From: a plasmid
DNA: 64,000 nt
Sequence record: NZ_CP096760.1
Direction: 5' to 3' (one strand)
The stretch's first letter is position 1. Every line of letters begins with the position of its first letter. The notes below the pieces were generated by a model. That model had not been told where the DNA came from. It made no database searches and saw nothing but the letters and a program-made list of their open reading frames with translations. Below are positions 22,194-62,385 of the stretch, one piece after another. A program made the translations under genes and the position numbers.

Positions 22194-22217
22194 ATATTAG
22201 TAAGCACTTACTAATAT
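22194..22217. repeat. prophage palindromic motif copy (ATATTAGTAAGCACTTACTAATAT)
   Basis: Perfect palindrome. Confidence 0.8.
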
Positions 22218-22572
22218 CACTCTAATAGAGAGTAAGAACATGATTAGCAACGAACATAAACTATTAATCGCTGTGTTAATTATGAGACAAGATAACAAGC
22301 GTAATAAGTGAACATGCAAAGATAAAGAAATATAGTAAGTGATTACTATATTTCTTTATATATTAATATCGAAGTCCTAGAAAAAATGCGAATGTGTCGG
22401 GTGCATAGCCTGTGTCAATCGCGACCATTTTCCAAACACCCTTTCACCACCAGGCCTATATAACAAATACTTTACCCTTGCGCCGCTTAAATCCATACAC
22501 TTATCCTTGTCCCAGTACGCCATGTCCATTATTCTTTTCAGGACGACTTTCTAATAATATTTAAGGATCAAT

Positions 22573-23142
22573 ATGAAAAGATTTTTTTTGGCTACTTTGA
22601 TTTTAGTTTGTTCAAATGCAATGGCAGAAGGGGAGGGCCCGTTCGCCGAGTACACCGTGAAACCGAGCGAATCATTAAATGATATAGCCAAGCGTAACGG
22701 GACCACGTGGGCAAAGCTGGCAGAAGACAATGATCTCCCTGATCCACCAACTGTTTATGTTGGGCAAAAGCTGGCAATCATGAAAAAGATGAATAAGGAC
22801 GAATATCTGGCTGCGATTGCAAAGACCCGACCAACGTGCTCAAGCAAAGAAGAATGTGACAAGAAAATGGAAGCTGCTCATTTGTGGGTGAGTAAATACG
22901 CTGATTACAAGATCAGAAGTTCAAATAACGTATTAATCGAAACATACGCTCCGCGCGAGTTCACTGGTGAGATCATCGTAAAGGTTTCTAAGGAGCCTTA
23001 TGGGAAGGGAACCTATGCGATCGTGGCCAACATGTCATGCAATAATCCGAATATGACTAAGCCTTATGACTCGATGACCAGTTGCAAGAGAAACGTTTAT
23101 AAGGAAATTATTAAGTTCAACGATTTCGTTAGTTCTTATTAG
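22573..23142 (+). CDS. secreted LysM-domain protein
   Basis: Signal peptide MKRFFLATLILVCSNAMA; LysM motif YTVKPSESLNDIAKRNGTTWAKLAEDNDL..VYVGQKLAI. Confidence 0.7.
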   Translation: MKRFFLATLILVCSNAMAEGEGPFAEYTVKPSESLNDIAKRNGTTWAKLAEDNDLPDPPTVYVGQKLAIMKKMNKDEYLAAIAKTRPTCSSKEECDKKMEAAHLWVSKYADYKIRSSNNVLIETYAPREFTGEIIVKVSKEPYGKGTYAIVANMSCNNPNMTKPYDSMTSCKRNVYKEIIKFNDFVSSY

Positions 23143-23176
23143 CTTTAAGCTATTTGACCAAGTATAGAGGGAAAAG

Positions 23177-23455
23177 ATGGCTTCAAAGGATGATTTAAAT
23201 TATGTTGCTTACCACATTATCGAAATTCTGGAAGAACAGGGTTTAGATAATTCTTATATTAACGAAAAAATAGATCGTCTTTACGAATTCGGCGAAAATA
23301 AAGCCGCTACATTGCTTTGGGCTTCAAACCAGCTCGATAGTAGAAATTTTAGATTACTTTTGGGCAAACTTAATTTAACTCCCGATCAAGTAAAGATATT
23401 TTGTCGCGTATTGAACAAGCTGAAAAAATATTTGGGCTACAATTTATTGAGCTAA
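23177..23455 (+). CDS. hypothetical protein
   Basis: 92-aa ORF. Confidence 0.45.
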   Translation: MASKDDLNYVAYHIIEILEEQGLDNSYINEKIDRLYEFGENKAATLLWASNQLDSRNFRLLLGKLNLTPDQVKIFCRVLNKLKKYLGYNLLS

Positions 23456-23518
23456 GCTTTTTAATTACCTATGATATTCCGAATAAATTAATGCCCCATA
23501 TATCACTTGGGGCATTTC

Positions 23519-23824
23519 TTACTGCACTTGGCCAGATTTAATTAACTCTAGCGCTTTTTTCTTCAATTCCTTCCTACGCTCTTTTTCAGCAATCTTTTCT
23601 TCGCGAATGGCTTCAATATGCACACCGAAAAGCTGATCAGACAGATTGCCACTTTCAAGCAAACGTGCAAAAGCGTCAACAATCTCGCCTTGAGTGAGTT
23701 TATGCTGTTTTGCCATATTTTCTAAGGTCTGGATTGTCTCTGGACGCAAAGTGATGGATGTTCGAACTAAACCTTTTTCTTTATAAAATTTGGAAGAGTT
23801 AGTAGCTGCCATTATTTGCTCCAA
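23519..23824 (-). CDS. ribbon-helix-helix-like DNA-binding protein
   Basis: RTSITLRPETIQTLENMAKQHKLTQGEIV resembles RHH beta-alpha-alpha; downstream of the helicase on the minus strand. Confidence 0.45.
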   Translation of the reverse strand: MEQIMAATNSSKFYKEKGLVRTSITLRPETIQTLENMAKQHKLTQGEIVDAFARLLESGNLSDQLFGVHIEAIREEKIAEKERRKELKKKALELIKSGQVQ

Positions 23825-23937
23825 TTAAAATTTGATGAAAATTAAAACTTGCATATTATAGTTATTATTGCATTGATCACGCTGAAATACCACAAAATAA
23901 AACGGGCTTGCCCAAAACATTGAACAAGCCCAGAACA

Positions 23938-25647
23938 CTATGCAGCTTTTTTGAAACCGAGCTTTTCAAACTCGAAATTCGCAACGATATTCTCGCCAAA
24001 GCCGGGTGTTTCTCTGATGATCTGTAAACGCTGTCTAGCGTGAGATTTGAGCGTTGAATTGTGCTGGTCTGTGAAATCAACAATAAACGCAACGTTTGGA
24101 CCGAATTTCTTAGCACGTAACCCGCGCCCAATACGCTGGCGTAAGGCAACTTCCGCTTTCCCACCACCGGCAAGAATAATCAACCCGACAGCAGGGACAT
24201 CCACACCCACATCAAGAATTGTTGTTCCAATCAGTACATCAATATCCTTATTGGCAAGTTCGGTGAGCGCAGATTTACGTTCTCCCTGATCATCTTCACC
24301 GCGAATATATCTCGCTCTGATACCTATATCGTCAAACAGCTTCAATAGGGTGTCGCCATGCGAGGTATGCTGGACGAGAACCATCGCCGTCATGCCATAT
24401 TCACGGGCTTTGAGAATTTCCATACAGATGGCATTGTTCCGCTCTTCGTTTTGCACGATTCCCAAGCGATAGGCAGCTTGCCAAGGGGTAATAGAGTGTA
24501 ATTTGGCTGGCTTTTTCTTCAATTCGACGATTTTGAAGTAAGGCTTAGCAAGGATTCCGCGATCAATCAGCATTTTTTCCGTAACCTTGATGGCAATCGG
24601 TCCGGAACAAGCCATCAAACGCATATTTGACTCTTGGCTTTCACGCATGAACGGCGTTCCGGTCAATGCCAAGCGGTAATAGGCGTTTTTACAGTGGCGC
24701 ATGATCTCGTAATACGAATTTCCACCTGCCTCATGTGCTTCTTCGAGAATTACGAACTCAAAAAGCTCCAAAAGCTTGATGGTTTGCTGTCTTACGAGTG
24801 ATTTTTCCTTGAATTTTGCTTCTGCCTTAGCTTGCATCGCTGGCGCCTTGTCCTGAAGCTCCTTTTCATGTTGCAGTGCAAGGTTATGAAGCACTTTTTT
24901 GATTTCGGACTCGACTTTACCGACCTTAATTAGCTGTTTTTTAGTGTCCGAAATCTCTTTTTCGTGTTTTTTGACTACGTTGTCATAAAGGATCTGAAAT
25001 TCCTTCTCTAAAGTCGTCTCTTCCAGCTTGGCGGCGAGGGTTTGAACCATTCCGACCGTCATTTTCTTGATGGAGAGCTGACCTTTTTCATTCACCTGTC
25101 CAAAACTGCCATCACCAATGACCGAACATGCAACGCCATTTGCTTCGAATGCATCTTTCATCTGATACATCAGAATCGAACGGGTTGTTAAAAACAAGGT
25201 AGGGCGGTTAATTCGGGCCTGACACAACATGGCAATGCGTGATTTACCGCCACCAGTAGCGACTTGAGCGATAATCTGGCCATGACGTACAAGACGATCC
25301 ATAACTTCCGGCTGGTAATCGTAACGAGGGTCATATCCGTAACTATCTACCACTGGTCGGGCAGGTCCAAGTGGAGCGGGGAGGGGTTTTCGTGCGAGTT
25401 TTACTTCAAAACCTGCCTTCTTGAGTCGATCCGTAACATGGACTACAAATCCTGCTGGAAAAGAGCACTTGGCAAAGTCAAAAAATGACGATCTGCCATC
25501 CCAACGGTGCTGTCTAAACGCTAGAGTTTCTTCGGCGCCATCCACCAAATAACTAAGCGCCGACTGTACTTCAAGTTTCGCCTCAACAGGAGGCTTGTGT
25601 AGGATGGCATTTACGGCGTCATAAGCGATTGTTACAACTTTTCCCAT
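23938..25647 (-). CDS. SF2 DEAD/DEAH-type DNA helicase with a large coiled-coil insertion
   Basis: Motifs I ATGGGKS, II ILEEAHE, III LTGTP, VI QRIGRGLR; about 130-aa K/E-rich insert between motifs I and II. Confidence 0.8.
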   Translation of the reverse strand: MGKVVTIAYDAVNAILHKPPVEAKLEVQSALSYLVDGAEETLAFRQHRWDGRSSFFDFAKCSFPAGFVVHVTDRLKKAGFEVKLARKPLPAPLGPARPVVDSYGYDPRYDYQPEVMDRLVRHGQIIAQVATGGGKSRIAMLCQARINRPTLFLTTRSILMYQMKDAFEANGVACSVIGDGSFGQVNEKGQLSIKKMTVGMVQTLAAKLEETTLEKEFQILYDNVVKKHEKEISDTKKQLIKVGKVESEIKKVLHNLALQHEKELQDKAPAMQAKAEAKFKEKSLVRQQTIKLLELFEFVILEEAHEAGGNSYYEIMRHCKNAYYRLALTGTPFMRESQESNMRLMACSGPIAIKVTEKMLIDRGILAKPYFKIVELKKKPAKLHSITPWQAAYRLGIVQNEERNNAICMEILKAREYGMTAMVLVQHTSHGDTLLKLFDDIGIRARYIRGEDDQGERKSALTELANKDIDVLIGTTILDVGVDVPAVGLIILAGGGKAEVALRQRIGRGLRAKKFGPNVAFIVDFTDQHNSTLKSHARQRLQIIRETPGFGENIVANFEFEKLGFKKAA

Positions 25648-25684
25648 TTCAATACCTTTTGCATTTGCTTAATATTTGGCTTAA

Positions 25685-25709
25685 ATTATAAGTAAGCACT
25701 TACTAATAT
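25685..25709. repeat. prophage palindromic motif copy (in the divergent helicase/ParB promoter region)
   Basis: ATTATAAGTAAGCACTTACTAATAT. Confidence 0.75.
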
Positions 25710-25725
25710 TTCAAAGTAGTTTCCT

Positions 25726-26364
25726 ATGTCAGTTGAATATTTAGAAATCGACCCAGGAGAGCTTTGGCCTAATCCTTGGAATTCAAACGTCGTATCACCT
25801 GAAAACGAGCGAAAAATCGAAGAAGGTATTAAACGTCACGGTATGTTTAAGCCAATTATCGTTCGTACCCTTCTTGATGGCCGCTTACAGATCATTGGCG
25901 GTCAGCACCGAGCAATGATTGCTAAACGTCTTGGTCTACTCACTGTGCCGGTAATGAACCTTGGGCGCATTGACGAAGCCAGAGCAAAAGAGATCGGTCT
26001 AATCGACAACGGTCGTTATGGCGAAGATGACATCGTTAAGCTCAACGAAATTCTTCATGATCTTGGCGGTATCGATGAATTGATCGATGTAATGCCTTGG
26101 TCAAGTGAAGAAATCGACATCTTCTCTAGCACTAATATAGCGCTGGACGCTCTAAGCGATCTCGATTCGCCATCAGAGGAAGTTGAATTACCCAAGACAA
26201 CCAAAGTTCAAACTCACCAAATCATGCGTTTCAAGGTTCCGATCGAGGACGTAGACGCAATTACCAAACTCATCGAGAAGACCATTAAGGCACAGGGCTT
26301 TACCGAATCCGACAGCTTGACGAATGCAGGGGATGCCTTGGTTTATCTCTTGGGAAGCAAGTAA
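25726..26364 (+). CDS. ParB/Srx (ParB-like nuclease) domain protein 1
   Basis: GMFKPIIV..IIGGQHRAMIAKRLGL N-terminal ParB-box-like domain. Confidence 0.7.
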   Translation: MSVEYLEIDPGELWPNPWNSNVVSPENERKIEEGIKRHGMFKPIIVRTLLDGRLQIIGGQHRAMIAKRLGLLTVPVMNLGRIDEARAKEIGLIDNGRYGEDDIVKLNEILHDLGGIDELIDVMPWSSEEIDIFSSTNIALDALSDLDSPSEEVELPKTTKVQTHQIMRFKVPIEDVDAITKLIEKTIKAQGFTESDSLTNAGDALVYLLGSK

Positions 26365-26380
26365 TGAAACCATATGAAGG

Positions 26381-26995
26381 ATGGGATGGCTAATGACCGA
26401 TTTATCTCAAAAAGGGCAGGTTCGAATGTACCGACGGGGTGGCCAATACCCTGTAGACCTTGAAGCAATCCAGTTTAATGGAAACAACGGCTCCGAAATT
26501 GAACTCTGGCTTGGGGTTCACTGCTCAACCCAAATGAAAACAGTAGCCAGAGTAGGGGGAAATACTGATGAAGACTTTTCCCTTGTCATTCCCGGCATTG
26601 GTACAGCCGAGGCAGGTGATTACATCGCTAAAAACCTAGATGGAACGGTGGTCATCCTCAAGCCAGACTATTTCGAGAGCGAGTTTCAGGAAGTTATCAC
26701 TTTCAACACGCCTGAACAGGAACATGAAGGGGCGGTTCCCGAAGTAGATGACGGCGCCTTGAAGTTTTTGAAGAAGTTCTGCAATGGATACCGCATCGTT
26801 TCAACATGCGACCTAACAGAATTGCAGATTGCAGAAGCCAACGTAGAAGGTCGTCTCTATATCGAACCTGAAGGTGGCTTCGGATGGGTAGCGCTCCCTT
26901 GGGAATTAACTACCGTCAGGGATCGGCAACGCGAAAAGTTCTACCAGATCAACAAGCAGTTGATTGAGCAAACCGATACGCGGGTGGCCGAATGA
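26381..26995 (+). CDS. hypothetical protein
   Basis: 204-aa ORF between the two ParB-like genes. Confidence 0.5.
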   Translation: MGWLMTDLSQKGQVRMYRRGGQYPVDLEAIQFNGNNGSEIELWLGVHCSTQMKTVARVGGNTDEDFSLVIPGIGTAEAGDYIAKNLDGTVVILKPDYFESEFQEVITFNTPEQEHEGAVPEVDDGALKFLKKFCNGYRIVSTCDLTELQIAEANVEGRLYIEPEGGFGWVALPWELTTVRDRQREKFYQINKQLIEQTDTRVAE

Positions 26996-27642
26996 GCGAA
27001 CTAAAAATCCAAATGTGGATTGTTGACGATGTAAAGCCTTACGAACTCAACGCCAAAATCCACAGTGAAGAACAAGTCGCCAAGATTGCCGAGTCGATTG
27101 CCCGCTTCGGTTGGGATCAACCCATTGTGGTAGATAAAAATGGCGTAATCATCAAGGGGCATGGTCGCCGTCTTGCAGCCATCAAGTTAGGTTTAATCGA
27201 AGTACCTGTTCTGGTCCGCGATGACTTGAATGAAGAACAGGTGAAAGCTGCACGCTTGGCCGATAACCGAGTTGCCATTGGTGACATTGATGCCGACCTG
27301 CTCAAGCTGGAGCTGCAATCCATCAACATCGAGTTCCTTGAGGACATCTTCGACAGCAAGGAGCTGGAGTTCATGCAAGCCGACCTCTCCGAAATGAACG
27401 TCGATGTGATTGTTGATGATCTGGACAGCGCGGTAGCCGAGCAACAGCGCCATACGGCAAATGCAGTATCGGAATCGAACGAAAAACCTATCCGAATCGA
27501 CAAGGTTTTAGGGTTCAGCGAAGTATCGGGCAAAGAATCACGTTCCATTCACTACTTTATGGCCATTGCAGAAGATGCAACTGGACTAGAAGGGAAGGAC
27601 GCTTTCGTAACGTATATCAGCAAATTGGTGGAGAGCGCTTAA
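26992..27642 (+). CDS. ParB/Srx domain protein 2
   Basis: KPYELNAKIHSEEQVAKIAESIARFGWDQPIVVD..GHGRRLAA. Confidence 0.7.
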   Translation: MSELKIQMWIVDDVKPYELNAKIHSEEQVAKIAESIARFGWDQPIVVDKNGVIIKGHGRRLAAIKLGLIEVPVLVRDDLNEEQVKAARLADNRVAIGDIDADLLKLELQSINIEFLEDIFDSKELEFMQADLSEMNVDVIVDDLDSAVAEQQRHTANAVSESNEKPIRIDKVLGFSEVSGKESRSIHYFMAIAEDATGLEGKDAFVTYISKLVESA

Positions 27643-28298
27643 TGGCTGTTTATAACATCGATGTCCGATACAAAACGTCAGTTGAGCGTACCGAACGTGT
27701 ACTGGAAATTGCCGAGTCGTTCGGGTTGGGCTTAGATGCGAAGGAATTTGTGGTTTTCGATAACACGCCAATTGAAATCGAGCAGGGAGACATCGTTTAC
27801 ATCACTGGTCAGTCTGGTGGCGGTAAATCGACCCTGCTACGGAAGCTGGCGGAACAAATGGAACAAAGCGGCTTAAAAGTCGCTGACCTGAATGCCATTG
27901 AGCATGATGACCGTCCAATCGTCGACCAGATTGGCGAAACACTAAAAGACGCTCTGGATGTACTCACCATTGCCGGCATCACTGATGCCTATATCTGGCT
28001 AAACAAGTTTGATGCCCTCTCGGACGGCCAACGTTATCGCTTCAAACTGGCAAAACTGATTGAGAGCAAGGCGGACGTCTGGATTGCAGATGAATTTCTT
28101 GCCGTTCTTGATCGAACTGTTGCCAAAGTTGTTGCGTACAACATTCAGAAAATTGCCCGAAAACTCGGAACAACCGTACTGGTTGCCACAACGCATGACG
28201 ACATGGTTGAAGACCTCAACCCAAGCCTCTTCATTGATAAGCGATACCGCGAAAAAGTGGTAATCACCAAAGCACCTGAAGGATTTAAACAAGTATGA
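27642..28298 (+). CDS. stand-alone ABC-type ATPase (no transmembrane domain)
   Basis: Walker A GQSGGGKST, signature LSDGQRYRF, Walker B VWIADEF, H-loop TTHD. Confidence 0.7.
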   Translation: MAVYNIDVRYKTSVERTERVLEIAESFGLGLDAKEFVVFDNTPIEIEQGDIVYITGQSGGGKSTLLRKLAEQMEQSGLKVADLNAIEHDDRPIVDQIGETLKDALDVLTIAGITDAYIWLNKFDALSDGQRYRFKLAKLIESKADVWIADEFLAVLDRTVAKVVAYNIQKIARKLGTTVLVATTHDDMVEDLNPSLFIDKRYREKVVITKAPEGFKQV

Positions 28299-28717
28299 CT
28301 AATCGATCAAAAAAAGTTGTAACTAAAGACACTGTAGATGCTCATGAATTCGCGTCAGAAGCATCCGAAACTGTTGCAGAGCAAATCGTTCAAGCAGAAG
28401 TTGTGGAGCGTTCTGAGAGCGAACCAGCGCAAACCAAGCGCACATTAACCCTATATTCTTCAACCGTCTGCTCACCTTGCAAGACCATCAAGCCGATTCT
28501 GGAAAAACAAATGCTAGGTCGCGCAACCGAATACCATGTGCTGACCATTGATCCAAACAATATCGAACCTGAAATCAAACAGCAGTTTGAAGAAGCGGGC
28601 GTAACGCAAGTGCCTACCCTGATCTGCAAGGAAGATGGCAAAGAGGTAGGTCGTTTATCGGGATACAGTGGTGTTCGACCGCTACTCGATGTCTTGAAAG
28701 CTTGGGAAGTGATTTAA
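28295..28717 (+). CDS. thioredoxin-fold protein (CSPC active site) with an acidic N-terminal extension
   Basis: CxxC motif plus cis-Pro VPT loop. Confidence 0.65.
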   Translation: MTNRSKKVVTKDTVDAHEFASEASETVAEQIVQAEVVERSESEPAQTKRTLTLYSSTVCSPCKTIKPILEKQMLGRATEYHVLTIDPNNIEPEIKQQFEEAGVTQVPTLICKEDGKEVGRLSGYSGVRPLLDVLKAWEVI

Positions 28718-28740
28718 CAAAGGGCGTTTAACGCCCTTAC

Positions 28741-29709
28741 TTGATTGAGAAAGGTATGGAAAAGGTTTTACTCGATACACCAGATATTCTCGTTACTCGT
28801 AAATCACCTAAGCAAAACCACAACCTGTCATTGCTCAAGGACATCATTGTGGAGCCGGGTGACAAGAGTGACTGGGACCTTCTGCACGAATTGCACTACA
28901 AGGCAGAAACGCTGCCGATCGGTTCAAGGTTCTGGAAAGTAACCCTGCATGGCAAGACCATTGGTGTCGGGATTCTGGCTGTTCCCAAAATGTTGCTTTC
29001 GGGTCGTAATGACTTGTTCAAATATCTACGTCCAAACGTCAACGGCAAGGATACCCGCCTGATCAATAAAAGTCGGGCTGAATGGCTAAACGAAAATGTC
29101 TGCACCAATAGCCGACTTGTACTGGACACCATCTACCGTGGTTGCGGGATTGCGTATCGTGCCCAAAATTTAATGATGCGCATGGTGGATAGAAAACATA
29201 CCGAGTTCCAAAGCTCGATGTCGAAATTCAATCCATTCGCGGAAAGGGCAGGCATCAAGTTCACCCCGCCTAAGCAGGCGACCAATTATCAACGCGGTGT
29301 GGACTTCTTTGTGAAATGGTTTGAAACCAAGCATCCGACAGATGTTGTGGGGATTCTGGAGGAGCTGAGCTCCAAACCCGAACCTATCAAAAAGAAGATC
29401 ATCGCTGAAATGCGGAAGTTCTATTACCAATACAGCTCTTTGGAAAAATCCGGCAATAACCGGCTGAATGGTTTTAGCCGTGTAGAGAGCATGCCTGTCG
29501 AAAAGCTGCTAAAGAACATTCAACAACTGGTTTTTGCGTCTCCGTTATATGGGGTCTATACCAATCCTGACTTGATCTACAAAGCCAAACATCCTGAGCA
29601 CGAGATTCCCAAACGGGTATCAATTTTGGCATTTGACTGTCAGAAACCAGACGAACCCCTAAATGTTGAACTCATTAAATCAAGAGGGCTTTTATTCGAA
29701 TGCAATTAG
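28741..29709 (+). CDS. hypothetical protein (322 aa)
   Basis: ORF with RBS. Confidence 0.55.
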   Translation: MIEKGMEKVLLDTPDILVTRKSPKQNHNLSLLKDIIVEPGDKSDWDLLHELHYKAETLPIGSRFWKVTLHGKTIGVGILAVPKMLLSGRNDLFKYLRPNVNGKDTRLINKSRAEWLNENVCTNSRLVLDTIYRGCGIAYRAQNLMMRMVDRKHTEFQSSMSKFNPFAERAGIKFTPPKQATNYQRGVDFFVKWFETKHPTDVVGILEELSSKPEPIKKKIIAEMRKFYYQYSSLEKSGNNRLNGFSRVESMPVEKLLKNIQQLVFASPLYGVYTNPDLIYKAKHPEHEIPKRVSILAFDCQKPDEPLNVELIKSRGLLFECN

Positions 29710-30023
29710 GTCTAACCCCAAAACAGATCGAATTACTGACAAAGATTCGCGATAAAAATCCAGACGGTTCTTTGCTCTCAATCGAACAGCTTCATGACGC
29801 CGTGAGTTACACCTGCACCCGACAAGCCATTACATGCAGCCTAAATTTTCTGATTAAAAGAGGCCTGATTGAGAAGAGCGGGCAAAACGTGGTGAGAAAC
29901 GGGCGTAGATTTACGGTCGTCAGCATCAAGCCATTGGGCGAGGAAATACTAAACGCCTATGTACCTTCGCTACGGCAGGTACTTGTAGAAAATGAGGATG
30001 AGGAAATTGAAAAAATCTTCTAA
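29700..30023 (+). CDS. winged-helix DNA-binding-like small protein
   Basis: 107 aa, basic, helix-rich. Confidence 0.4.
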   Translation: MQLGLTPKQIELLTKIRDKNPDGSLLSIEQLHDAVSYTCTRQAITCSLNFLIKRGLIEKSGQNVVRNGRRFTVVSIKPLGEEILNAYVPSLRQVLVENEDEEIEKIF

Positions 30024-30120
30024 GGTAAAAAGCGTTAAGAAAACCTCGCCAAGTTGGTTCCGCACTCCGTACAATCGCTTATGGTATGTTTTGGTCCAAG
30101 ACCCAAAACAATTCTTGGCT

Positions 30121-30486: not shown

Positions 30487-30490
30487 TTCC

Positions 30491-30602
30491 GACATTTGGG
30501 TAATTTGGGTTTTCCGCAACTCTTCGAATAATATATTATTAATAAGTGCTTACTTTATTGTATTATTAATATATTCGGAAAACTGCGGAACTCCCAAATG
30601 TC
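30491..30602. repeat. about 110-bp imperfect palindrome centred on a degenerate motif copy (30536-30556)
   Basis: Arms GACATTTGGG..TTCCGCA..CGAATAATATATT (30491-30537) and reverse complement (30569-30602). Confidence 0.6.
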
Positions 30603-30999: not shown

Positions 31000-31005
31000 A
31001 TAAAA

Positions 31006-31026
31006 TTATTAATAAGCGCTTATTAT
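31006..31026. repeat. prophage palindromic motif copy (variant TAATAAGCGCTTATTA)
   Basis: Palindrome upstream of TerS. Confidence 0.7.
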
Positions 31027-31151
31027 TTACTTTTGGTTTTATTTTGCTTATCCTAGAGGCCATCGGACATGTTTGAAATGGTGCGTGTCTGACTTTTTAG
31101 AGGGCGCATATCATTTAGTAGCTGGTACGCGCCTTTTTTTTAGGTGATTGC

Positions 31152-33017: not shown

Positions 33018-33039
33018 TTATTAGTAAGCGCTTACTAAT
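33018..33039. repeat. prophage palindromic motif copy (perfect: TATTAGTAAGCGCTTACTAATA)
   Basis: Between TerL and portal. Confidence 0.85.
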
Positions 33040-35664: not shown

Positions 35665-35686
35665 TTATTAGTAAGCGCTTATTGAT
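35665..35686. repeat. prophage palindromic motif copy
   Basis: ATTAGTAAGCGCTTATTGATAA upstream of the capsid gene. Confidence 0.75.
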
Positions 35687-36693: not shown

Positions 36694-36717
36694 ATATTAG
36701 TTAGCACTTATTGATAA
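36694..36717. repeat. prophage palindromic motif copy
   Basis: AATATTAGTTAGCACTTATTGATA, immediately 5' of a terminator. Confidence 0.7.
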
Positions 36718-36746: not shown

Positions 36747-36825
36747 TTGAAAGCATTATTTATATTGATTGTTTAAATATTAGTTATAACTTATTATTTA
36801 ACTAAAATGGCAGGTTGGATTAAGC

Positions 36826-40055: not shown

Positions 40056-40080
40056 AATTATTAGTAAGCGCTTATTAATA
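40056..40080. repeat. prophage palindromic motif copy
   Basis: AATTATTAGTAAGCGCTTATTAATA upstream of the tube gene. Confidence 0.75.
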
Positions 40081-40651: not shown

Positions 40652-40679
40652 ATATATTAGTAAGCACTTACTAATATAT
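40652..40679. repeat. prophage palindromic motif copy (ATATATTAGTAAGCACTTACTAATATAT)
   Basis: Perfect palindrome. Confidence 0.85.
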
Positions 40680-47048: not shown

Positions 47049-47076
47049 AATATTAGTAAGCGCTTACTTATAATTA
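47049..47076. repeat. prophage palindromic motif copy
   Basis: AATATTAGTAAGCGCTTACTTATAATTA. Confidence 0.8.
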
Positions 47077-48127: not shown

Positions 48128-48873
48128 TCGACACACGCCTACTTAATGAAATTAAACAACATGCGATGGATTGTTATCCAAATGAAGCTTGTGGCTTTAT
48201 TGTTGTCAATAAATATAAGTTAGCGCTTACTATAAAATGTCGTAACGATTCGCCGTTCCCGAAAACTCAGTTTCTTATTAATCCCGATGAGTATCTTCGC
48301 GCAGAACAGGAAGGTGAAATTGTTGGTGTATGGCATACGCATACCAATGGCAATCCGAAGCCAACCGAATCTGATTTGGCCGGCTGTGAAGTGACAGGCT
48401 TGCCTTGGTACATGCTAATGGTCGAGAAGAAAGGGGACGAATTCCACTTTAACGATCTCGTAGAGTTTTCACCAACCGGATATGAAGCCCCATACGAAGG
48501 TCGTCCATATGTATATGGCTCTTTCGATTGCTGGACGCTTTGCCGCGACTTTTACCTACGTGAGTTTGGTATCGAACTTCGTGACTACCCGCGTGTAGAG
48601 AAGTTCTGGACCAATGAAGAAACCAATTACTTCATCAATAAGTACGAAGAAGTAGGGCTTGTCGATGTGACAAATCAGCCCCTTCAGTACGGCGACATTC
48701 TCTTCATTCAAACCGACGGAAGTGGCAACCCGAACCACGCAGCCATTTATGTCGGTACAGAAAAAATCCTTCATCACTGCGAGGGTCGTTTATCTCGCTA
48801 CGACGCCTATGTCTACGGCTCCTACTGGCTTAAGCACACTGTTAAGCAAATGAGGCACAAAAGTAAATGTTAG
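48124..48873 (+). CDS. tail assembly protein, lambda gpK-like (JAB/MPN plus NlpC/P60)
   Basis: GVWHTHTNGNP JAB motif; C..H NlpC/P60 region. Confidence 0.8.
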   Translation: MIDTRLLNEIKQHAMDCYPNEACGFIVVNKYKLALTIKCRNDSPFPKTQFLINPDEYLRAEQEGEIVGVWHTHTNGNPKPTESDLAGCEVTGLPWYMLMVEKKGDEFHFNDLVEFSPTGYEAPYEGRPYVYGSFDCWTLCRDFYLREFGIELRDYPRVEKFWTNEETNYFINKYEEVGLVDVTNQPLQYGDILFIQTDGSGNPNHAAIYVGTEKILHHCEGRLSRYDAYVYGSYWLKHTVKQMRHKSKC

Positions 48874-55400: not shown

Positions 55401-58400
55401 AACTAAATAACAGCATTTCAAGCATCAACGGCGCACTTTCGAGTAAAGCGGATGCGAGCGCATTACAGTCGCTTGATTCAAAAGTAACACTAATCGACGG
55501 CAAAGTTACATCTAACTCTTCTGCATTAACAGCGTTGCAAAGCAGCTTTGAGGGAATTCCAAATCAAGGCGTGAACTTGCTCGGCCCTGAAATTTCCAAC
55601 CCAATCGAAAAGCCAAATTGGATTTCAGGTCTTCCATTTGAAGTTATTCAATCACCAGATACGGTGAATGTGCGTGCGTTCCAATTCACGATGCCTGCCA
55701 ACACCACTAGCGGCACTTACTTCAACATTGGTGGCGGCCAAGTTCCGCGACAGTGGCTAACAGAAGGTACATACATTTTTAGTTTTGTTGCCAAAACTGT
55801 TGGCGGGACACCACCGCATGCTATTGAGTGGCAACTCTACAATGTAGATAGTACACGCCTGCGCTTTAATATTACCGCAACATTAACCCGCTATAGCGGG
55901 GTGTTCACGGTGCCCGCTGGTGGTGCCGCTGCATGTATGCTGTTAATCGGAAACCCTACAGGCAAACCTGCGGGACAAGTTATCAATATCGAAAGAATGA
56001 TGCTTGAACGGCAAGTTGGCAACAACACAACCCCTTCGGCTTGGATTGCAGGTAGCGACCCAACCGGAATGATTCTTTCAACGCAAGCCAAGGCGACTGA
56101 TTTATTCAACACAGCCACTAGCCAAAACGCCGCGACTGCGGGACGCGTCACTAGCCTCGAAAGTCGCATGACGACCACAGAAGGCAATTTAAACAAAAAG
56201 GCTGATGCTTCTGCGCTTCAAAACCTCGACACGAAAGTTACGAATGTCGATGGCAAAGTAACGTCAAATACCAATGCCATTACAGCTTTAAGTTCAACTT
56301 TAAGCAACGCTACTTCAAGCATTTCAATGAATGCGGGTAATGCACAGGGCGATTGGACATTCTTTAATACGTCAGGCGAATACTCAATTGTTGCACAAGC
56401 GGATGGCCAAGCGGGTCGTGTTATTCAACTTGGAAATAATGCTGGCAATGATATTGTTTGGATGCATCCGAATAACTTCATTCCTTTTGATGCAACTAAG
56501 ACATATCGACTTCGTGCGCGGTATCGCCGTCGTGCCGGAACAGGCACAATTTACCTCGGTGTCTCTCAGAAAACCCCAGACAAGGCACTATACGTAACAA
56601 CAGCCAACGCATTATCGGGCGATATGGGGTCTTCTAACTATGTTGTTAATGCGCACGCACCTGCGATCGATGAATGGCAAGAAATCGTTGCGTATATCAA
56701 AGGTCGATCAGCAGGAGCAGCATCGGGTTCAGGCTCAAAAACAAGCCCACGTACTGTTTCACAACAAGCAGGCTTCATCACGCCGATGTTTATTGCAAAC
56801 TATTCGGCGCAAACGGGCATTGTTGAGCTTGATTACCTAATTCTGGAAGATGCAGAGGCAATTGTTGGCAATGATGCAAATGCATCAGCGATTAGCGCTC
56901 TTGATACCAAAGTATCAGAAGTTGATGGACGCTTAACGACAGCAACAAATTCAATCACTTCGCTTAACTCTCGTATGAGTGCAGCAGAAGGGAATATCTC
57001 AGCGGCAAACTCGGCTCTAAGCGGTCTTTCAACGAGAATGACGGCTGCTGAAAATGGTTTAACCAATCAAAGTAATGCGATTACTAATTTAAGTAACAGC
57101 TTAACGGTTACAACCAATACAGCGAACGCTGCATTGCCTAAGATTCAGGGCGGTACTGGCGCAGCTAAGTTATTTAGAGGCGTTCTTGTATGGCAGCAAA
57201 ACGGCGCAAATCTAACTGGCAATATCGTAATCCAAACGCCAATTACCTTCACAAATAAAATGTTCCGACTTTCACTTACTGGCTATAACTACTTGGCCGC
57301 TAAGAATGAAATTAATCTGAACATTGGGGGCTATGCATATTCGGGCACCTCTCTGCTTCAACATGGAGTGGTAAATTCGGGCACCATGCCAATTCGAGTT
57401 CGCATGGGTGTCCGAAATGGCACAGTAGTCGTTATTTTAACTTCTCAGGCACCAGGCGCTTACTGGCAATATCCAAAATTCAATATCGACGCTGAAATTG
57501 GCTACACAACTCCACCAGATAGTTGGGCCGATGGTTGGTCAGCTAGTTTCATGGCTGAGGCAGACCTCGCATCTAATGGCATTTCTGCAATCATTGAGCC
57601 GTCTTTATTAGACATTTCAACAACGCTTAATGCCACTGCTTCTGCAATTAGTAATCTGACAAATACTGTGTCTCAACAGGGCGATACAATTACTTCTCAC
57701 AGTAATTCTATTACCACCTTAACCAACAAGATTACTAACAATGATTTATCGAATCTTGTTCTTAATCCTGATTTCGTAGACCCGAAAAGCGATTGGACAT
57801 CTGGCGTAATTGTTGATGCGACTGACGCAGCGCCTAACCCGCCTTCTGCAAAAGCATTAAGACTGAATAACCGTGATAGTTATTACGGTCCTTTCGTCAA
57901 ATGTAATGTTGGCGACATGTTCTATGTTTCGGCTTGGTTTGCGACGCCAAATACATCAGCAACCGCTTCTGCCGTGCTTGGTTTCAATACTCGGAACAGC
58001 GCAGGCACTTACACTTGGTATAGCGTTGCCATTAAGTCTACGGACAAAAATGCTTGGGGTATGGTGGAAGGTTATTTCACTGTGCCAAATGGCATGGTTG
58101 ATATTCGACCTTGGCTTCAAGTAAGTATTGCTGCGTCAGAAGCAGCGGGGCAGCAATGGCATGTTACGAACATTCAAGTACGTAACATTACAGGTAATAA
58201 GAAGTTAGCAACCGACTTGCAAGCAACCTCGTCCGCCGTAACTGATTTAACTTCAAAAGTTACAAACATCGACGGTCGTTTAACTTCGGCATCAAATAAT
58301 ATCGTTACGCTCAACAATAGCGTTACAAACATCAATGCCACCCTCGCCCAGAAGGCAGATGCGACAGCCTTAAATTCGCTCTCTAATCGAGTAACCACTG

Positions 58401-60652
58401 CGGAGGGGAATATCACAAGCCAAGGTAATTCAATTACCTCATTGACTAATTCCCTAGCGGTTAGTGGAAAGGCGGGCACAAACCTTCTCATCAAATCCAA
58501 TGTAGTTGGCACTTATGATGGTGTCTCATACCCACACCATACATACAAACTCGGTGAAGATTGGGAAGTTGGGGCTACATATACTTTAATTTGGTGTGCT
58601 GAACATAAACGAGGGACTGGCGATACAAACTCATCACTTGCTGTATACGCAGGTGGTGGCTCACAACATCTGCAAGCCGTAGTAAATACGAATGGTAAGG
58701 TTGTCAGCAAAGTTACCTTTGTTAAAAACAGCGCAGTTGCCTCTGGCCCAATTATCCACTTCTACATGCTCAACCGTCCGACAGCCGACAAGGGTAGCGT
58801 TGGTACGGTTTATTGGGCGGTGCTTGTAAAAGGCGATGTACTCACGACTGATGCTTGGATTCCAAGCCCATATGATTATATCCCTGATAGCAATGCAAAT
58901 GCCGCTGCTATCGCAAATCTTACTAATACAGTAAGTCAGCAAGGCAATACTATTACATCAAATAGCAGCAGCATTACCTCGCTCACTAATCAAATCGGTA
59001 ACACGAAGTCATATTCGCTGGTGACTTTCCGTAACGGCTCTGCCGTTGGCATGCCAAAGGCGGCTGGCGTCTACACTGGAAACAATACGCGATTATATGG
59101 ATTTGGGCGCGGTTTAAATCTCATTGTGTTTAAAAATGGGGATGTTGAAAGCTGTACGCAATATGACACCTATGTCGACATCGTATCTGCATGTAACGCC
59201 ATCTATGCCGCTATCAAGGCGCTTGCATCGGGAACTTACTTTGCAATCGTGGGTACAGATAACATTGGCTCAGTTGGAAATTCAAACCCAAATACTGATT
59301 TACGTGCGCTTTTACTTGCTTCTGGTGCTGGCGACACATATTTCAGATCTTGGAACTGGAATGCTCTTCCTATTTTTGTAGGACGCAAAGACCTAGATGC
59401 AGGCAATGGTATTCTCGGTATGTTTGATTCGACTGTTCCTAATCAGTGGATTGAATACCCGCTTAGTTTTGTGAATGGTGTACCTGTAGGTTTAGGTGAC
59501 TCCCGAACTTTAACCACTCAACTGGATGCAAATGCTTCTGCCATTTCGTCATTGTCGAACACAGTGACTCAACAAGGTAAGGATATTGCTTCACATAGCA
59601 GTAGTATTACCTCGCTAAACAATAGCATCACCAATATTAACGGCACGTTAGCAACAAAAGCAGATAGTTCGGCTCTAACAAACCTCGCCAACCGCGTAAC
59701 TACAACCGAAGGTGCAATTACCTCTCAAGGCTCAAGTATTACTTCGCTGAATGCATCTGTGAATGGCTTATTAAAGGATGTTGCAGTATCCGATACTCGA
59801 TCTACTAATCAGCCTCCATCGTGGTATTGGTCAAACTATCCATTGCGTATCGTTCGCGAGTTCAAGCAAGCCTCTGTGCTAGGTTTGACTGGCATGGGTA
59901 CATATGTCTCCCTTGAAACATACGTTTATTGGATTGACCCATCTGGTGGCCCAATCATTCAAATTGCACGAGGTTCTTCTTCGGCTTTTACTGCTGAACG
60001 AAGAAGTGCTGATTACAACTCGTGGTTCGCATGGTCTCAGGACATTAAAGCATTGAGTGATGGCTTATCGAATAAAGCTGAGGCCTCAGCGCTATCTTCA
60101 CTTGATGCCAAGGTATCAACGATTGATGGAAAAGTCTCAACTCAGGCGACAAGTATTACCAATCTGCAAACAACTGTGGGTGGACATACGGCGTCAATTC
60201 AATCGCAGCAACAATCAATTGATGGATTGAAATCAAGAGCAACTTTGAAGTTGCAATCCGGCAATTTAATTGGCGGTGTTGGGATTGAGAACGATAGCAA
60301 AACCGTTGATTTCATTATTCAGGCTAACAAGTTCGCCATCGCTCCACCATCTAATGCCGCAGCGGGTTCTGTAGCGCCTAAATACGCATTTGTTTATCAA
60401 CCGACAGCCACAACGTTGCCAAATGGAACAGTCGTACCTGCCGGACTGTATTTGGACAATGCGTCAATCGGCTATATCAACGCGGAAAAAATCAATGCCT
60501 CAAGTTTAAGTGCAATTAGCGCAAATCTTGGAACTTTAACCACACTTAAGGATCCAACGAAGCCTAATGGAGCGCGAATGGTTATTACAGGTAGTTTGAC
60601 TACCGTTTATGACGATAACAACGTGGCACGTATTAGATTAGGGATTTGGTAA
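49469..60652 (+). CDS. giant host-specificity / central tail fibre protein (gpJ-like N-terminal third plus long fibre extension), 3727 aa
   Basis: gpJ-like N-terminus and Fn3 region, Ala/Thr/Gln-rich tract (52110-52450), at least 10 serial coiled-coil repeat units and at least 4 CBM-like beta modules. Confidence 0.85.
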   Translation: MNAKIKKFGFPLPIAGASGGSKSPSVPREDPDNLQSSAYVNIIDLIGEGQIGGLVDNVDGDSLTEKEKSIFFDGTRLRHTNGELNFANVSWAERVGLQRQDYIEGFGEGVETPFYKNVQLKSGIPSAFTVSNPNADRVRIILAVNSLLSTDRSSGDTYGTSVEFQIKLSVNNGPYEILATKKITGKTTSRYQRSFSFDLPKKKADGTPITAWSFQITRTTPDSNSSYLQNTTFFESYSEVELTKFSYPNVALVATRFSSETFSSIPKREYLVDGLLIKVPSNRNKDGSYTGPWDGTFKLESSSNPAWILYDLLLSKRYGLGEYITPEMIDESRLYVIGQYCDQLVDDGFGNKEPRYTINCVINTRVEAYDLIVDICSAFNGMAYWAGHMVGFTIDAPGTPQMLFNNTNIVGDFSYQGTSNKDRHSVAVVTWNDPNDDYKQVPEVVEDPELIERYGIRKTEVMAFGCTSRGQAARYGRWLLYSEHQQSETITFNVGIDAALLLPGDLIYVQDRDRAGKRFGGRLLDCTAKQAVLDDLVDFGEFTDLTLVIRLEDGSLAERVIASHTKKTVTVSGHTKEVTVVEWAEALTVMPVKYALWIIKAAELQPVIARVVNVAQGEEKGTYNITAVPHNPNKYQSIENDLMLDVPPTSILNSRNQEPPASVEIKSEIITTQNVAKTRLVISWKEAKNAARYEVEWKRNDGNWVKLPQTTSLSIEVEDVYAGAYTARVVAYNLFGARSYPKYSTSTDVKGKVGKPTNVLSLTTTPLLFGMKLDWVYPAGNSDLSHVVIEVSDRADGSNPRLLGNVSYPTNTLTIQGLQGGLDQWYRTKTVDKSGNESDWSNFVKGTTGNDPDQVLDLISGQIGESDLATELQGKIENSVTVSEAAKIVADNAQTAATNAQTAATDAKTAASEAQKAASSAQTQASSAQQIASEASATAANAKNAADQAVTAANQAKTAADNAATTAATASSTASKAQTTANDAAAAASKVASDLTTSTNQLNKKIADETDARTVAISKLNDGLTIETSQRKTEDAALLSNIETYKSSTNGTLSSLQTQINTNATNTSANTSKISSLDSRLTTNEGKTADAINAAATAQQTASSAVDKANAVANSVTALKSELSSGKGINNIVAPFSDPQELPALGGASRTVALVDSALRRNGKAYKVSFTAAAHYVYFGTAQAALAPSQMAMQVEAGRAYTFSVWLKALSTAVPSFRFNILWFIRDPSTGNITTNAGIIFPQGQTDSYIAPNANGQRYSFRPVNSPANAIGATVYVVGNPSGPSAGEYLIDMLMLEESVGSEKPASTWTAGPADLNAIKNALDTNAVAINNLITRVSNNEGKITSQGNLITQLNNSINTINGTLSNKADATALNALTTRVSNAEGQISSQGSSIVSLQNDLASTNKAVSTKADSSALNSLDSKVSEIDGRVTSNANAVTSLQGSVSSIEKGLSTKADASALNNYYTKTEADSAASGAIDKFNSQLTIGGVNVVANSEAPRTSTAATNREYLLYERSAELKAFYDENLEKPITISFEMSVPVAGPVQVYSSNGSAHQFVTSVNAIIVNQFAKYSVTVSPKAHTASTTVSTIEFYGTYGTGRIPTIRKLQIEAGTKATAWSPSPRDTKAAIDANASAIQTTQTKVDNIDGRLTTATDSITSLNSRMSTAEGNINSTNTAVGGLSTRMATAEGKITNQSDSIASLQNSVTSINGTLANKADSSAVNNLTSRVETAEGKISSQSGQITSLSNSLDLTNSNLNDVNVLARLLSLGKPLRDDPTFKTTSAGGLSAYSFPAGTSWVKQTKSTDNPTGSTHEMLIKATQALGGGWYPTAPTLVLTANKTFLIKQIIKMPVGTKLQAIGNATGTGGYIRILGNDLGTGKFETYYSVVQGGADLSGSTIQGHFRVIAGTNPPVPTVDNPVFVILASYEVFDVTAVNDTIPKAYSDAIAANANAINTLSNTVSQQGNTITSHSNSITQLNNSISSINGALSSKADASALQSLDSKVTLIDGKVTSNSSALTALQSSFEGIPNQGVNLLGPEISNPIEKPNWISGLPFEVIQSPDTVNVRAFQFTMPANTTSGTYFNIGGGQVPRQWLTEGTYIFSFVAKTVGGTPPHAIEWQLYNVDSTRLRFNITATLTRYSGVFTVPAGGAAACMLLIGNPTGKPAGQVINIERMMLERQVGNNTTPSAWIAGSDPTGMILSTQAKATDLFNTATSQNAATAGRVTSLESRMTTTEGNLNKKADASALQNLDTKVTNVDGKVTSNTNAITALSSTLSNATSSISMNAGNAQGDWTFFNTSGEYSIVAQADGQAGRVIQLGNNAGNDIVWMHPNNFIPFDATKTYRLRARYRRRAGTGTIYLGVSQKTPDKALYVTTANALSGDMGSSNYVVNAHAPAIDEWQEIVAYIKGRSAGAASGSGSKTSPRTVSQQAGFITPMFIANYSAQTGIVELDYLILEDAEAIVGNDANASAISALDTKVSEVDGRLTTATNSITSLNSRMSAAEGNISAANSALSGLSTRMTAAENGLTNQSNAITNLSNSLTVTTNTANAALPKIQGGTGAAKLFRGVLVWQQNGANLTGNIVIQTPITFTNKMFRLSLTGYNYLAAKNEINLNIGGYAYSGTSLLQHGVVNSGTMPIRVRMGVRNGTVVVILTSQAPGAYWQYPKFNIDAEIGYTTPPDSWADGWSASFMAEADLASNGISAIIEPSLLDISTTLNATASAISNLTNTVSQQGDTITSHSNSITTLTNKITNNDLSNLVLNPDFVDPKSDWTSGVIVDATDAAPNPPSAKALRLNNRDSYYGPFVKCNVGDMFYVSAWFATPNTSATASAVLGFNTRNSAGTYTWYSVAIKSTDKNAWGMVEGYFTVPNGMVDIRPWLQVSIAASEAAGQQWHVTNIQVRNITGNKKLATDLQATSSAVTDLTSKVTNIDGRLTSASNNIVTLNNSVTNINATLAQKADATALNSLSNRVTTAEGNITSQGNSITSLTNSLAVSGKAGTNLLIKSNVVGTYDGVSYPHHTYKLGEDWEVGATYTLIWCAEHKRGTGDTNSSLAVYAGGGSQHLQAVVNTNGKVVSKVTFVKNSAVASGPIIHFYMLNRPTADKGSVGTVYWAVLVKGDVLTTDAWIPSPYDYIPDSNANAAAIANLTNTVSQQGNTITSNSSSITSLTNQIGNTKSYSLVTFRNGSAVGMPKAAGVYTGNNTRLYGFGRGLNLIVFKNGDVESCTQYDTYVDIVSACNAIYAAIKALASGTYFAIVGTDNIGSVGNSNPNTDLRALLLASGAGDTYFRSWNWNALPIFVGRKDLDAGNGILGMFDSTVPNQWIEYPLSFVNGVPVGLGDSRTLTTQLDANASAISSLSNTVTQQGKDIASHSSSITSLNNSITNINGTLATKADSSALTNLANRVTTTEGAITSQGSSITSLNASVNGLLKDVAVSDTRSTNQPPSWYWSNYPLRIVREFKQASVLGLTGMGTYVSLETYVYWIDPSGGPIIQIARGSSSAFTAERRSADYNSWFAWSQDIKALSDGLSNKAEASALSSLDAKVSTIDGKVSTQATSITNLQTTVGGHTASIQSQQQSIDGLKSRATLKLQSGNLIGGVGIENDSKTVDFIIQANKFAIAPPSNAAAGSVAPKYAFVYQPTATTLPNGTVVPAGLYLDNASIGYINAEKINASSLSAISANLGTLTTLKDPTKPNGARMVITGSLTTVYDDNNVARIRLGIW

Positions 60653-61715: not shown

Positions 61716-61724
61716 GGAGTCGTT

Positions 61725-61976
61725 ATGTATTTATTAATACTTACTTTGATTTTGAATGGGGCTGAAGTTAATAGCGTAATTGCTGGGGAATTTAAAACAG
61801 AAAGTGCCTGTTCCGCTGAAAGGGCCGAAATAGCTGTCGAAATGGCAAGTAATGAAGCGCATATGGAAAAGCTAAAGGGTTATGACAAAGTAATCATGAA
61901 ATGTGTAAAGCAAGAAGTTAAATTGAACCGACCCGAAATGCCGAAAATTTTATGGAATGGTAAAGAAATTAGCTGA
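61725..61976 (+). CDS. small secreted protein
   Basis: N-terminal signal-like segment MYLLILTLILNGAEVNSVIAG. Confidence 0.45.
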   Translation: MYLLILTLILNGAEVNSVIAGEFKTESACSAERAEIAVEMASNEAHMEKLKGYDKVIMKCVKQEVKLNRPEMPKILWNGKEIS

Positions 61977-62065
61977 CAAACCAGAAGTTTGTACCAGTAA
62001 GGACCTTTGCTAAAGTGCCGTTATTCTAGTCTGCTCTGTTATGATTTACTTTGTATTTAAGTAAT

Positions 62066-62095
62066 AAAAAAGGCTTCTCAAGAAAGCCTTTTTAA
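62066..62095. terminator. bidirectional rho-independent terminator
   Basis: AAAAAGGCTTCT-caag-AGAAAGCCTTTTT between convergent genes. Confidence 0.75.
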
Positions 62096-62108
62096 TGAAG
62101 TCGAATGG

Positions 62109-62312
62109 TTACGCAGTACCGCCATTTTCTTCAGTAGTAGTGGTTTCATCTGCATAGACCAGTCCGACCAAAGCTAGACCAGGAGTCTTCCGATCGTAAA
62201 TCAAGGTCAAGTTTTCAACCGGCTTTCCATTTTGGCCTTCGAGCAAGTTGACTTGCCCTAAAAGAACGTTCAAAAGGTTAGCTTCATCTTTCGTGATCTG
62301 CTTTAATGCCAT
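62109..62312 (-). CDS. hypothetical small protein (moron, antisense to the late operon)
   Basis: 67 aa from the Met with an AGGA RBS. Confidence 0.45.
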   Translation of the reverse strand: MALKQITKDEANLLNVLLGQVNLLEGQNGKPVENLTLIYDRKTPGLALVGLVYADETTTTEENGGTA

Positions 62313-62359
62313 AGTAAACATCCTAAAAATTAAACAACGATAATTTTTACACACTCATA

Positions 62360-62385
62360 AATTATTAGTAAGTGCTTATTTATAA
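62360..62385. repeat. prophage palindromic motif copy
   Basis: AATTATTAGTAAGTGCTTATTTATA before the holin. Confidence 0.7.

Follow-up and report, generated by a model that had tools for sequence, protein, structure and literature searches.

A dispersed palindrome in the gene gaps of an Acinetobacter phage-plasmid as a candidate operator of one dimeric regulator

A stretch of 64,000 nucleotides from the plasmid record NZ_CP096760.1 (hereafter the window, meaning the whole stretch at its full length) was analyzed for a palindrome that recurs between the genes of a circular Acinetobacter phage-plasmid of the pABTJ2/AB_1 type (~110 kb). On balance, we read the palindrome as the operator, i.e., the double-stranded DNA site, of one dimeric, sequence-specific transcription regulator. 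We infer a bound protein from the site statistics, the placement of the copies, the lack of RNA-structure constraint, the absence of the motif from hosts, and the family-wide conservation of half-sites and positions. The regulator is most likely encoded by the phage-plasmid itself. As a dimer, it would dock at ~30 sites in the gaps between rightward lytic genes and in divergent control regions, and site occupancy would set the transcription of the lytic genes as a block. If the palindrome is a DNA operator, a global repressor or roadblock is slightly favored over an activator; such a protein would keep the lytic genes silent during plasmid life, as with the C1 operators of phage P1 or the "stoperators" of mycobacteriophage L5.

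Phage-plasmids of this type are very common in A. baumannii, and their portal protein was found in 3,913 blocks of the assembly collection. We know of no account of how these elements stay silent as plasmids or turn lytic, and a shared operator at ~30 sites would be an experimental handle on this switch. No relevant description of the motif was retrieved from the literature on SSU5 or on Acinetobacter prophage repeats, or by a full-text search with the literal sequence, and the description of pABTJ2 does not mention the repeat. The motif would be a regulon-like signal of the SSU5-like phage family.

Abundance, placement, and anatomy of the site

Circular A. baumannii plasmids of 110-117 kb matched the window DNA at 98-100% identity, the best match being pB84_2 (NZ_CP139838.1), a pABTJ2-type element. 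The first-pass annotation had taken the region for a prophage; it is instead a circular phage-plasmid. The structural genes of the window are those of a phage (TerL, portal, scaffold, capsid, and tail). For the portal protein, the identity was ~54% with Salmonella phage SSU5, Escherichia phage Cyrano, and Klebsiella phage-plasmids and ~50% with Pseudomonas phage nickie and Rhizobium phages; the gene order was the same as in SSU5 throughout. No closely related sequenced phage was found in INPHARED (megablast; 30-mer motif query). Positions 1-893 were phage DNA downstream of the phage SbcCD/NrdAB genes, and two copies of the insertion sequence (IS) IS5, at 894-1921 and 13913-14948, flanked a 12-kb cargo (segment 894-14948). 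A twelfth copy, previously placed 14 kb outside the prophage, therefore lies inside the element, and no convincing motif copy was found in the IS5-bounded cargo.

Searches were centered on the 20-mer ATTAGTAAGCGCTTACTAAT and the 16-mer core TAGTAAGCGCTTACTA, with ≤3 mismatches allowed and expectations obtained from shuffles. In the window, the 20-mer gave 9 matches (0.01 expected) and the 16-mer core gave 15 (0.28 expected); a 26-mer with the motif is ATTATTAGTAAGCGCTTACTAATATT. All 11 positions reported in the first-pass annotation carried a motif copy, its coordinates being the start of a 24-mer that begins 2-4 nt before the 16-mer core. The repeat that it described is real and far above chance; its wording of a perfect palindrome repeated at least 11 times holds for one copy only, as the perfect 20-mer occurs solely at 33020-33039 and the others have 1-4 mismatches. 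Copies at 838, 19952, 22333, 36781, and 48217 were absent from its list. Nor is every copy intergenic, as had been stated: the copy at 48217-48232 lies inside the C40-peptidase tail gene (48124-48873), and 2-4 further copies of the full plasmid lie in annotated coding sequences.

For the full-plasmid map, the pattern TAGTAAGNNCTTACTA (≤3 mismatches) was searched in pB84_2, which gave 33 matches, ~28 of them intergenic, though ~90% of the genome is coding. A copy usually started 10-20 nt past the preceding stop codon, and the next ATG was 13 to >120 nt away. The motif occupied 21 of the 47 gaps between rightward genes ("++" gaps) and three of the six divergent gaps of pB84_2, and it was present in none of the seven gaps within leftward operons and none of the four convergent gaps. 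These counts tie the motif to the 5' side of rightward units and not to the 3' ends of genes, and the earlier observation that copies fall at transcription-unit boundaries is borne out for rightward units. The neighbors of the copies were packaging, head, tail, and lysis genes as well as genes for DnaB, primase, SbcD, NrdA/B, an exonuclease, and a CobT-like protein. Because copies also precede replication and nucleotide-metabolism genes, the label of a late regulator suggested earlier is too narrow.

In the alignment of 31 copies, A2, T4, A6, T11, A13, and T15 were invariant and G7 and C10 nearly so; the two central bases were almost always CG, CA, or TG, and mismatches in a single half-site occurred. 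The site thus comprises two half-sites of 7-8 bp (T-A-G-T-A-A-G), one helical turn apart, around a free pyrimidine-purine center. This anatomy of a dimeric operator, with inverted conserved half-sites and a less constrained center, was found both in AB_1 and in 386 instances from relatives. As read from the sequence, conserved half-sites with a free center are the signature of a dimeric DNA-binding protein, which matches the single dimeric regulator proposed in the first-pass annotation.

A host repeat resembling repetitive extragenic palindromic (REP) sequences or miniature transposable elements with inverted repeats (MITEs) was ruled out by scanning one genome each from 185,579 bacterial and archaeal species with the pattern TTAGTAAGYRCTTACTAA (exact matches). 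The scan returned 52 scattered single matches, close to the chance level of about 35, and the only contig with multiple copies was from A. geminorum and was 99.7% identical to this plasmid. The motif is therefore a signal of the phage and not of the host, as had been suspected.

Conservation in related phages and candidate readers

The motif, sought in related phages, was kept, including at matching gene junctions. SSU5 carried AGTAAG-YR-CTTACT in about 15-17 copies, and their locations agree with those of the window: at the TerL/portal junction, ahead of the tube gene, behind a minor tail gene, ahead of the holin gene, and in the divergent helicase/ParB gap. Further relatives were collected by an alignment-based search of IMG/VR with the portal, from which the best 80 loci of 342 were taken; seven of the 80 were the Acinetobacter element itself, leaving 73. 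Most of these 73 relatives (GC content of 41-68%) carried TA-AGTCA-N4-TGACT-TA at the same junctions, with 4-15 copies per 19 kb. Half-site variants were specific to lineages, with AGTAAG in L180 and SSU5-like loci and AATCAA in L182. Rhizobium phage RHEph10 had AATCAA-NN-TTGACT before and after the tube gene and after a minor tail gene. The consensus of the 386 distinct instances was T-A-AGTCA-N4-TGACT-T-A, with 1.2-1.9 bits in the half-sites and <0.35 bits in the center; the flanks were symmetric, and an asymmetry of the -10/-35 kind was faint. The conserved junctions spanned phages whose portals are ~50-60% identical, and the phages of a broad SSU5-like family (~110 kb), which infect many different hosts, share the signal. 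Fixed positions, together with half-sites that differ by lineage, suggest that the reader is encoded by the phages and co-evolves with the sites. The fully syntenic Pseudomonas phage nickie had no motif copy in its whole genome and no other repeated intergenic motif, and its TerL/portal junction was occupied by an unrelated hairpin; nickie appears to be virulent.

A conserved RNA hairpin or processing site had been considered in the first-pass annotation. In this reading, the palindrome would act as RNA or single-stranded DNA, as a processing site, mRNA stabilizer, or attenuator at cistron boundaries, and we regard it as very unlikely. The start of most copies 10-20 nt past a stop codon, the copies flanking the capsid and tube genes, and the unrelated hairpin of the motif-less nickie would be in keeping with it, as would an excess of G:T over A:C (10 vs 2) at one arm position on the coding strand; this bias was absent in SSU5 (manual counts). 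However, the 33 copies folded with minimum free energies of -11 to 0 kcal/mol, most of them 0 to -3, and a T:T mismatch recurred in mid-stem in eight copies. In the 31-copy alignment, 75.2% of the cells were paired compared with 74.6% in shuffles, 202 of 500 shuffles reached as high a value, and there was no excess of compensatory changes. No Rfam family was matched. Across the family, the arm sequence is kept while the "loop" is free, which is the opposite of a structure-only element, and copies are absent from the convergent gaps that follow the last rightward gene yet occur in divergent gaps that have no upstream rightward gene.

A selfish miniature palindromic element of the REP/MITE kind, or a promoter for a divergent sigma factor of the plasmid itself, would likewise be short, palindromic, multicopy, and intergenic; we give either of these hardly any probability. 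The sharing of positions among phages with ~50-60% identical portals argues against recent spread, the motif is absent from host chromosomes in the species scan, and, leaving aside the IS elements, the backbone annotation lists no transposase, RAYT-like or otherwise. pB84_2 does encode a divergent, weakly Sigma70_r2-like protein between the MoxR/CobS-like and DnaE genes (74628-75293; L057 24628-25293, outside the window). SSU5 carries the motif although this gene has no counterpart there or in nickie, and a monomeric sigma factor needs no palindrome.

Among the four candidate regulators named in the first-pass annotation, the protein encoded at 29700-30023 is indeed a predicted DNA binder and is a candidate for the reader of the motif, judging from its model; no test links any of the four to the motif. 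Its homologues matched the HTH_27, MarR_2, PadR, and LexA_DNA_bind families, and its structure model (pLDDT, the predicted local distance difference test, of 86) had MftR, MepR, MarR, and PadR as the top PDB matches. The protein of 16874-17122 had a weak helix-turn-helix match and that of 23519-23824 a weak ribbon-helix-helix (RHH) match, and 19574-19780 gave no informative match. The RHH-like open reading frame (ORF) 23519-23812 showed no similarity to SSU5_123. Only ParA and the products of 15734-16060 and 16076-16798 were common to AB_1 and SSU5 and missing from nickie; neither of the latter two is annotated with a family or looks like a DNA binder. pB84_2 also encodes an HTH_3 regulator outside the window. 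In SSU5, the annotated "transcriptional repressor" SSU5_121 (L048 46897-47343) was an FljA-like phase-1 flagellin repressor (Pfam Flag1_repress, E 3e-81) and looks like a host-interaction gene rather than a phage immunity repressor.

Sign of regulation and likeness to known systems

Several observations favor an operator or roadblock. The copy in the helicase/ParB gap occupies the 18-bp spacer of TTGAAA-18-TATAAT (minus strand, into the helicase gene; 25714->25685; 11/12), the best sigma-70-like match in 19000-38000, which is a classic operator position; another such match, at 47047-47074, scored 10/12, and some relatives show them as well. Six pB84_2 copies ended 13-21 nt before the next ATG, and taken together with the TerL/portal copy of relatives the distances were 12-27 nt, with a Shine-Dalgarno sequence between in the inspected cases; they cannot be the promoter of that gene and can be roadblocks. 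The leftward operons, which presumably serve maintenance and lysogeny, are without the motif. The syntenic nickie, the one motif-less relative covered over its whole genome, appears virulent.

The alternative sign is an activator-dependent promoter, in which the palindrome would replace the -35 element and abut a -10-like hexamer (TAATAT/TATAAT), and a phage activator would recruit the host RNA polymerase; we consider this unlikely, albeit worth keeping in view. A TAnnnT hexamer begins at the last arm positions in most copies, with a fainter trace in relatives (+14 T, +15 A, +18 A), and -35 elements are mostly absent or weak. The late promoters of P1 are built similarly, with a -10 hexamer preceded by an inverted repeat of 9 bp (AAGTTACTT). 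The confinement of the motif to rightward and divergent gaps would also suit an activator, and its occurrence in RHEph10 suggests that it may be needed in lytic growth. However, the AT-rich flanks resemble a -10 hexamer to the same degree on either side (mean of 4.6/6 each), and the palindrome center lies ~6-7 nt from the -10 hexamer compared with 14 nt in P1. An activator-dependent promoter would also place the Shine-Dalgarno sequence in the initial transcribed region of the copies that end 12-27 nt before an ATG. Several copies are followed by terminators within ~10 nt, no homologue of the P1 activator Lpa was detected among all ORFs of the Acinetobacter element and SSU5 (phmmer, E ≤10), and nickie has the same gene blocks with no motif.

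Some results weigh against the operator reading. The recognition helix of the winged-helix candidate (29700-30023) does not co-vary with the motif type, and its homologue is also present in the motif-less relatives nickie, L130, and L152. When the ORFs of 39 portal loci were clustered, no family within ±9 kb of the portal tracked the presence of the motif. Equal -10-likeness on both flanks and weak -35 elements leave any coupling to a promoter putative. The role of a lysogeny-only repressor would be weakened if RHEph10, which we take to have been isolated as a plaque-forming phage, is strictly virulent. Lastly, copies directly upstream of terminators are not explained by an operator. The first-pass annotation had noted that two copies abut the strongest terminators; a stem-loop with a T-run can be read in the sequence after the copies at 36698 and 40658, while the consensus terminator scan listed neither. 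Family-wide, the post-capsid copy is followed by a strong terminator hairpin at a constant distance of ~9 nt (L125 12672, L122 12588, L140 12574, L167 12041), and the capsid and tube genes are bracketed by copies (36698-36796 and 40658-40705 in the window).

A different reader was also considered, namely the host nucleoid-occlusion factor SlmA, which in AB_1 and SSU5 would be recruited by the 12-bp core GTAAGYRCTTAC. Such recruitment would keep the septum off the plasmid DNA or block division when the phage DNA amplifies. We judge this reading improbable. The published SlmA site has the consensus GTGAGTACTCAC, requires G, T, A, and G at positions 1, 2, 4, and 5, and accepts either purine at position 3 (A serves as well as G) and either pyrimidine at position 6 (Tonthat et al., PMC3020112). 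Exact matches to the pattern derived from this rule, GTRAGYRCTYAC, numbered 10 in pB84_2 (0.1 expected), 3 in SSU5 (0.07 expected), and 0 in nickie. CG, CA, TG, and TA are the only variants of the center, and they coincide exactly with the set that SlmA tolerates. A search for a TetR/SlmA homologue encoded by the phage found none, so such a reader would be the host's, and SlmA would explain one motif in Salmonella and Acinetobacter phages without a common regulator gene. The SlmA sequence used as a query agreed with the PDB, and we take the curated SlmA families to be those of Enterobacterales, Vibrionales, Pasteurellales, and Aeromonadales. On the other hand, the AGTCA-N4-TGACT of most relatives breaks the rule at positions 3 and 5 at the same junctions, so SlmA is not the ancestral reader. 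The invariant A2 and T15 fall outside the 12-mer, T stands at position 3 in 8 of the 31 copies, and 12 of 31 lose the G at position 1 in one half. The motif was compared with some tens of known operator consensus sequences, and that many comparisons make a single 1-in-1000 match only weakly significant.

It is similarly doubtful that, in the AGTAAG-type lineages (the Acinetobacter AB_1 and the enterobacterial SSU5-like phage-plasmids), the operator palindromes double as high-affinity sites for the host SlmA, or a functional analogue, to manipulate division. If they did, this 110-kb element would carry about as many SlmA sites as the whole E. coli chromosome, and the septum would be kept off the element DNA or host division would be arrested as the copy number rises in lytic growth. 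Cell division would then be hijacked through DNA instead of a protein, which would be new for a mobile element.

Read as an operator, the palindrome resembles several known systems in logic, yet from each of them it differs in one or more defining features, be it symmetry, spacing, or a homologous protein. In P1, the C1 operators also serve one regulator at many sites over a ~100-kb phage-plasmid, at or near lytic promoters; they are asymmetric 17-mers, whereas the present site is a palindrome of 16-24 bp. The Lpa-dependent late promoters of P1 share the inverted repeat beside a -10-like hexamer, the missing -35 element, the location before lytic operons, and similar arm letters (AAGT...ACTT), but the spacing differs, there are 11 copies rather than ~30, and the present motif is also seen beside early and replication genes and immediately ahead of start codons. 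The stoperators of cluster A mycobacteriophages (L5 gp71) are dozens of repressor sites in short co-directional lytic gaps that silence read-through in the lysogen. They are likewise dispersed in short gaps of lytic operons; they are asymmetric 13-14-mers oriented with transcription, unlike the symmetric motif, and their host and phage family are unrelated. The OB sites of RK2 KorB and the sites of N15 SopB are palindromes present 4-12 times around the plasmid, bound by ParB-family proteins with global effects on transcription. Two ParB_N proteins are encoded beside one conserved motif copy here, but ParB-like genes are also present in the motif-less nickie, and no test links them to the motif. 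The SlmA sites of E. coli share with the motif a 12-bp core that obeys the published specificity; the density of the motif is 2-3 orders of magnitude higher, the motif is extended by conserved flanks, and most relatives carry a different sequence that is not a SlmA site.

Copies in the window and neighboring features

The copies of the window and the candidate reader are listed below.

Motif copies and the candidate reader gene in the window (empty cells, nothing to report)
Coordinates	Strand	Feature	Context
766..781		Weak half-site-like copy TATATAAGCGCTTACTTA	The "twelfth copy" of the first-pass annotation
838..853		Copy TAGTTATCGCTTACTA, 2 mismatches; typical ATTAT/TATAT flanks	Downstream of the NrdAB module in phage-plasmid DNA, immediately left of IS5; equals pB84_2 108257
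19952..19967		Copy TAGTGAGCGCTTACTA, 1 mismatch	Inside the promoter-like TTTACA-17-TATACT
22198..22213		Copy TAGTAAGCACTTACTA	18 nt past the stop codon of gene 21379-22179
22333..22348		Copy TAGTAAGTGATTACTA	Second in a 393-bp gap shared with the copy at 22198
25690..25705		Copy AAGTAAGCACTTACTA	Divergent helicase/ParB gap; ends 20 nt before the ParB-like ATG; SSU5 has the motif at the equivalent junction
29700..30023	+	Candidate reader, 107 amino acids, MarR/PadR-like winged-helix, family-wide	Predicted DNA binder; just upstream of the packaging genes
30540..30555		Degenerate copy TAATAAGTGCTTACTT
31010..31025		Copy TAATAAGCGCTTATTA, symmetric G>A / C>T change	Precedes the TerS-like gene by 126 nt
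33022..33037		Sole perfect copy	TerL/portal junction; starts 10 nt past the TerL stop, ends 19 nt before the portal ATG, Shine-Dalgarno between; kept in SSU5 and in distant relatives
35669..35684		Copy	Precedes the major capsid gene
36698..36713		Degenerate copy	10 nt past the capsid stop; stem-loop with T-run (~36716-36748) directly after
36781..36796		Degenerate copy TAGTTATAACTTATTA	Downstream of the ~36716-36748 terminator, 29 nt before the next gene
40062..40077		Copy	Ends 18 nt upstream of the tail-tube (Ig-domain) gene ATG; position kept in SSU5 and RHEph10
40658..40673		Copy	16 nt past the tube stop; GC-rich hairpin next
47054..47069		Copy	20 nt past the tape-measure stop; shares sequence with TTAATA-16-TATAAT and with an alternative stem of 14 pairs
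48217..48232		Copy AAGTTAGCGCTTACTA	Inside the C40-peptidase tail gene
62366..62381		Copy	Divergent gap upstream of putative holin/lysozyme genes; position kept in SSU5

Other repeats were observed beside the palindrome. The region 18300-19570 is 1.3 kb without called genes, in which TATCTATATAGA occurs four times (18911, 19000, 19092, and 19094) and a site weakly similar to the motif lies at 19145; iterons or operators may be located in this region, which separates the leftward operon from the rightward genes. A second palindrome, AAACAA-N-TTGTTT, recurs about 14-16 times in SSU5, a short distance upstream of early and middle genes (e.g., at 81, 30449, 42729, 70220, 82469, and 92759), and no second repeated motif was found in the Acinetobacter element. 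In metagenomic viral contigs (L005, L006, L007, L009, L011, L013, L015, and L018), GTTAGTAAGCGCTTACTAAC, which has the same 18-bp core, formed dense arrays with variants of its own and with other palindromes (TGCACC-N5-GGTGCA); no protein was common to these contigs and the present element in the stretches compared.

The module at 25726-28717 encodes a ParB_N protein, a protein of unknown function, a second ParB/Srx-like protein, and a P-loop ATPase, and it is kept in SSU5 and nickie; a thioredoxin-like protein joins it in the Acinetobacter element. It is unlikely to be a plasmid partition system, because it is also present in nickie. In a variant (L021 9165-10001, and L109), the ParB-like gene is almost fused to the portal gene with the loss of ~6.6 kb (window ~26365-32990), and a motif copy lies near either side of the junction; the variant may be a product of recombination or an assembly artefact.

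The window holds GGCTTTGTTGCACAAA, the terminal sequence of IS5, in four places. The cargo between the IS5 copies carries genes for TetR, an alkene reductase, a DJ-1-like protein, Fe- and Zn-alcohol dehydrogenases, and formaldehyde detoxification. Left of the second IS, other strains carry different DNA, and the cargo of pB84_2 includes a phosphoethanolamine transferase gene. The tRNA-Asn(GTT) gene at 15142-15217 is borne by the phage-plasmid and is not a chromosomal attachment site; tRNA-Asn is also present in SSU5 and nickie. Finally, a single ORF at 49469-60652 encodes a tail protein of 3,727 amino acids (GpJ-like FNIII and Phage-tail_3 domains), compared with 1,385 amino acids for its SSU5 counterpart.

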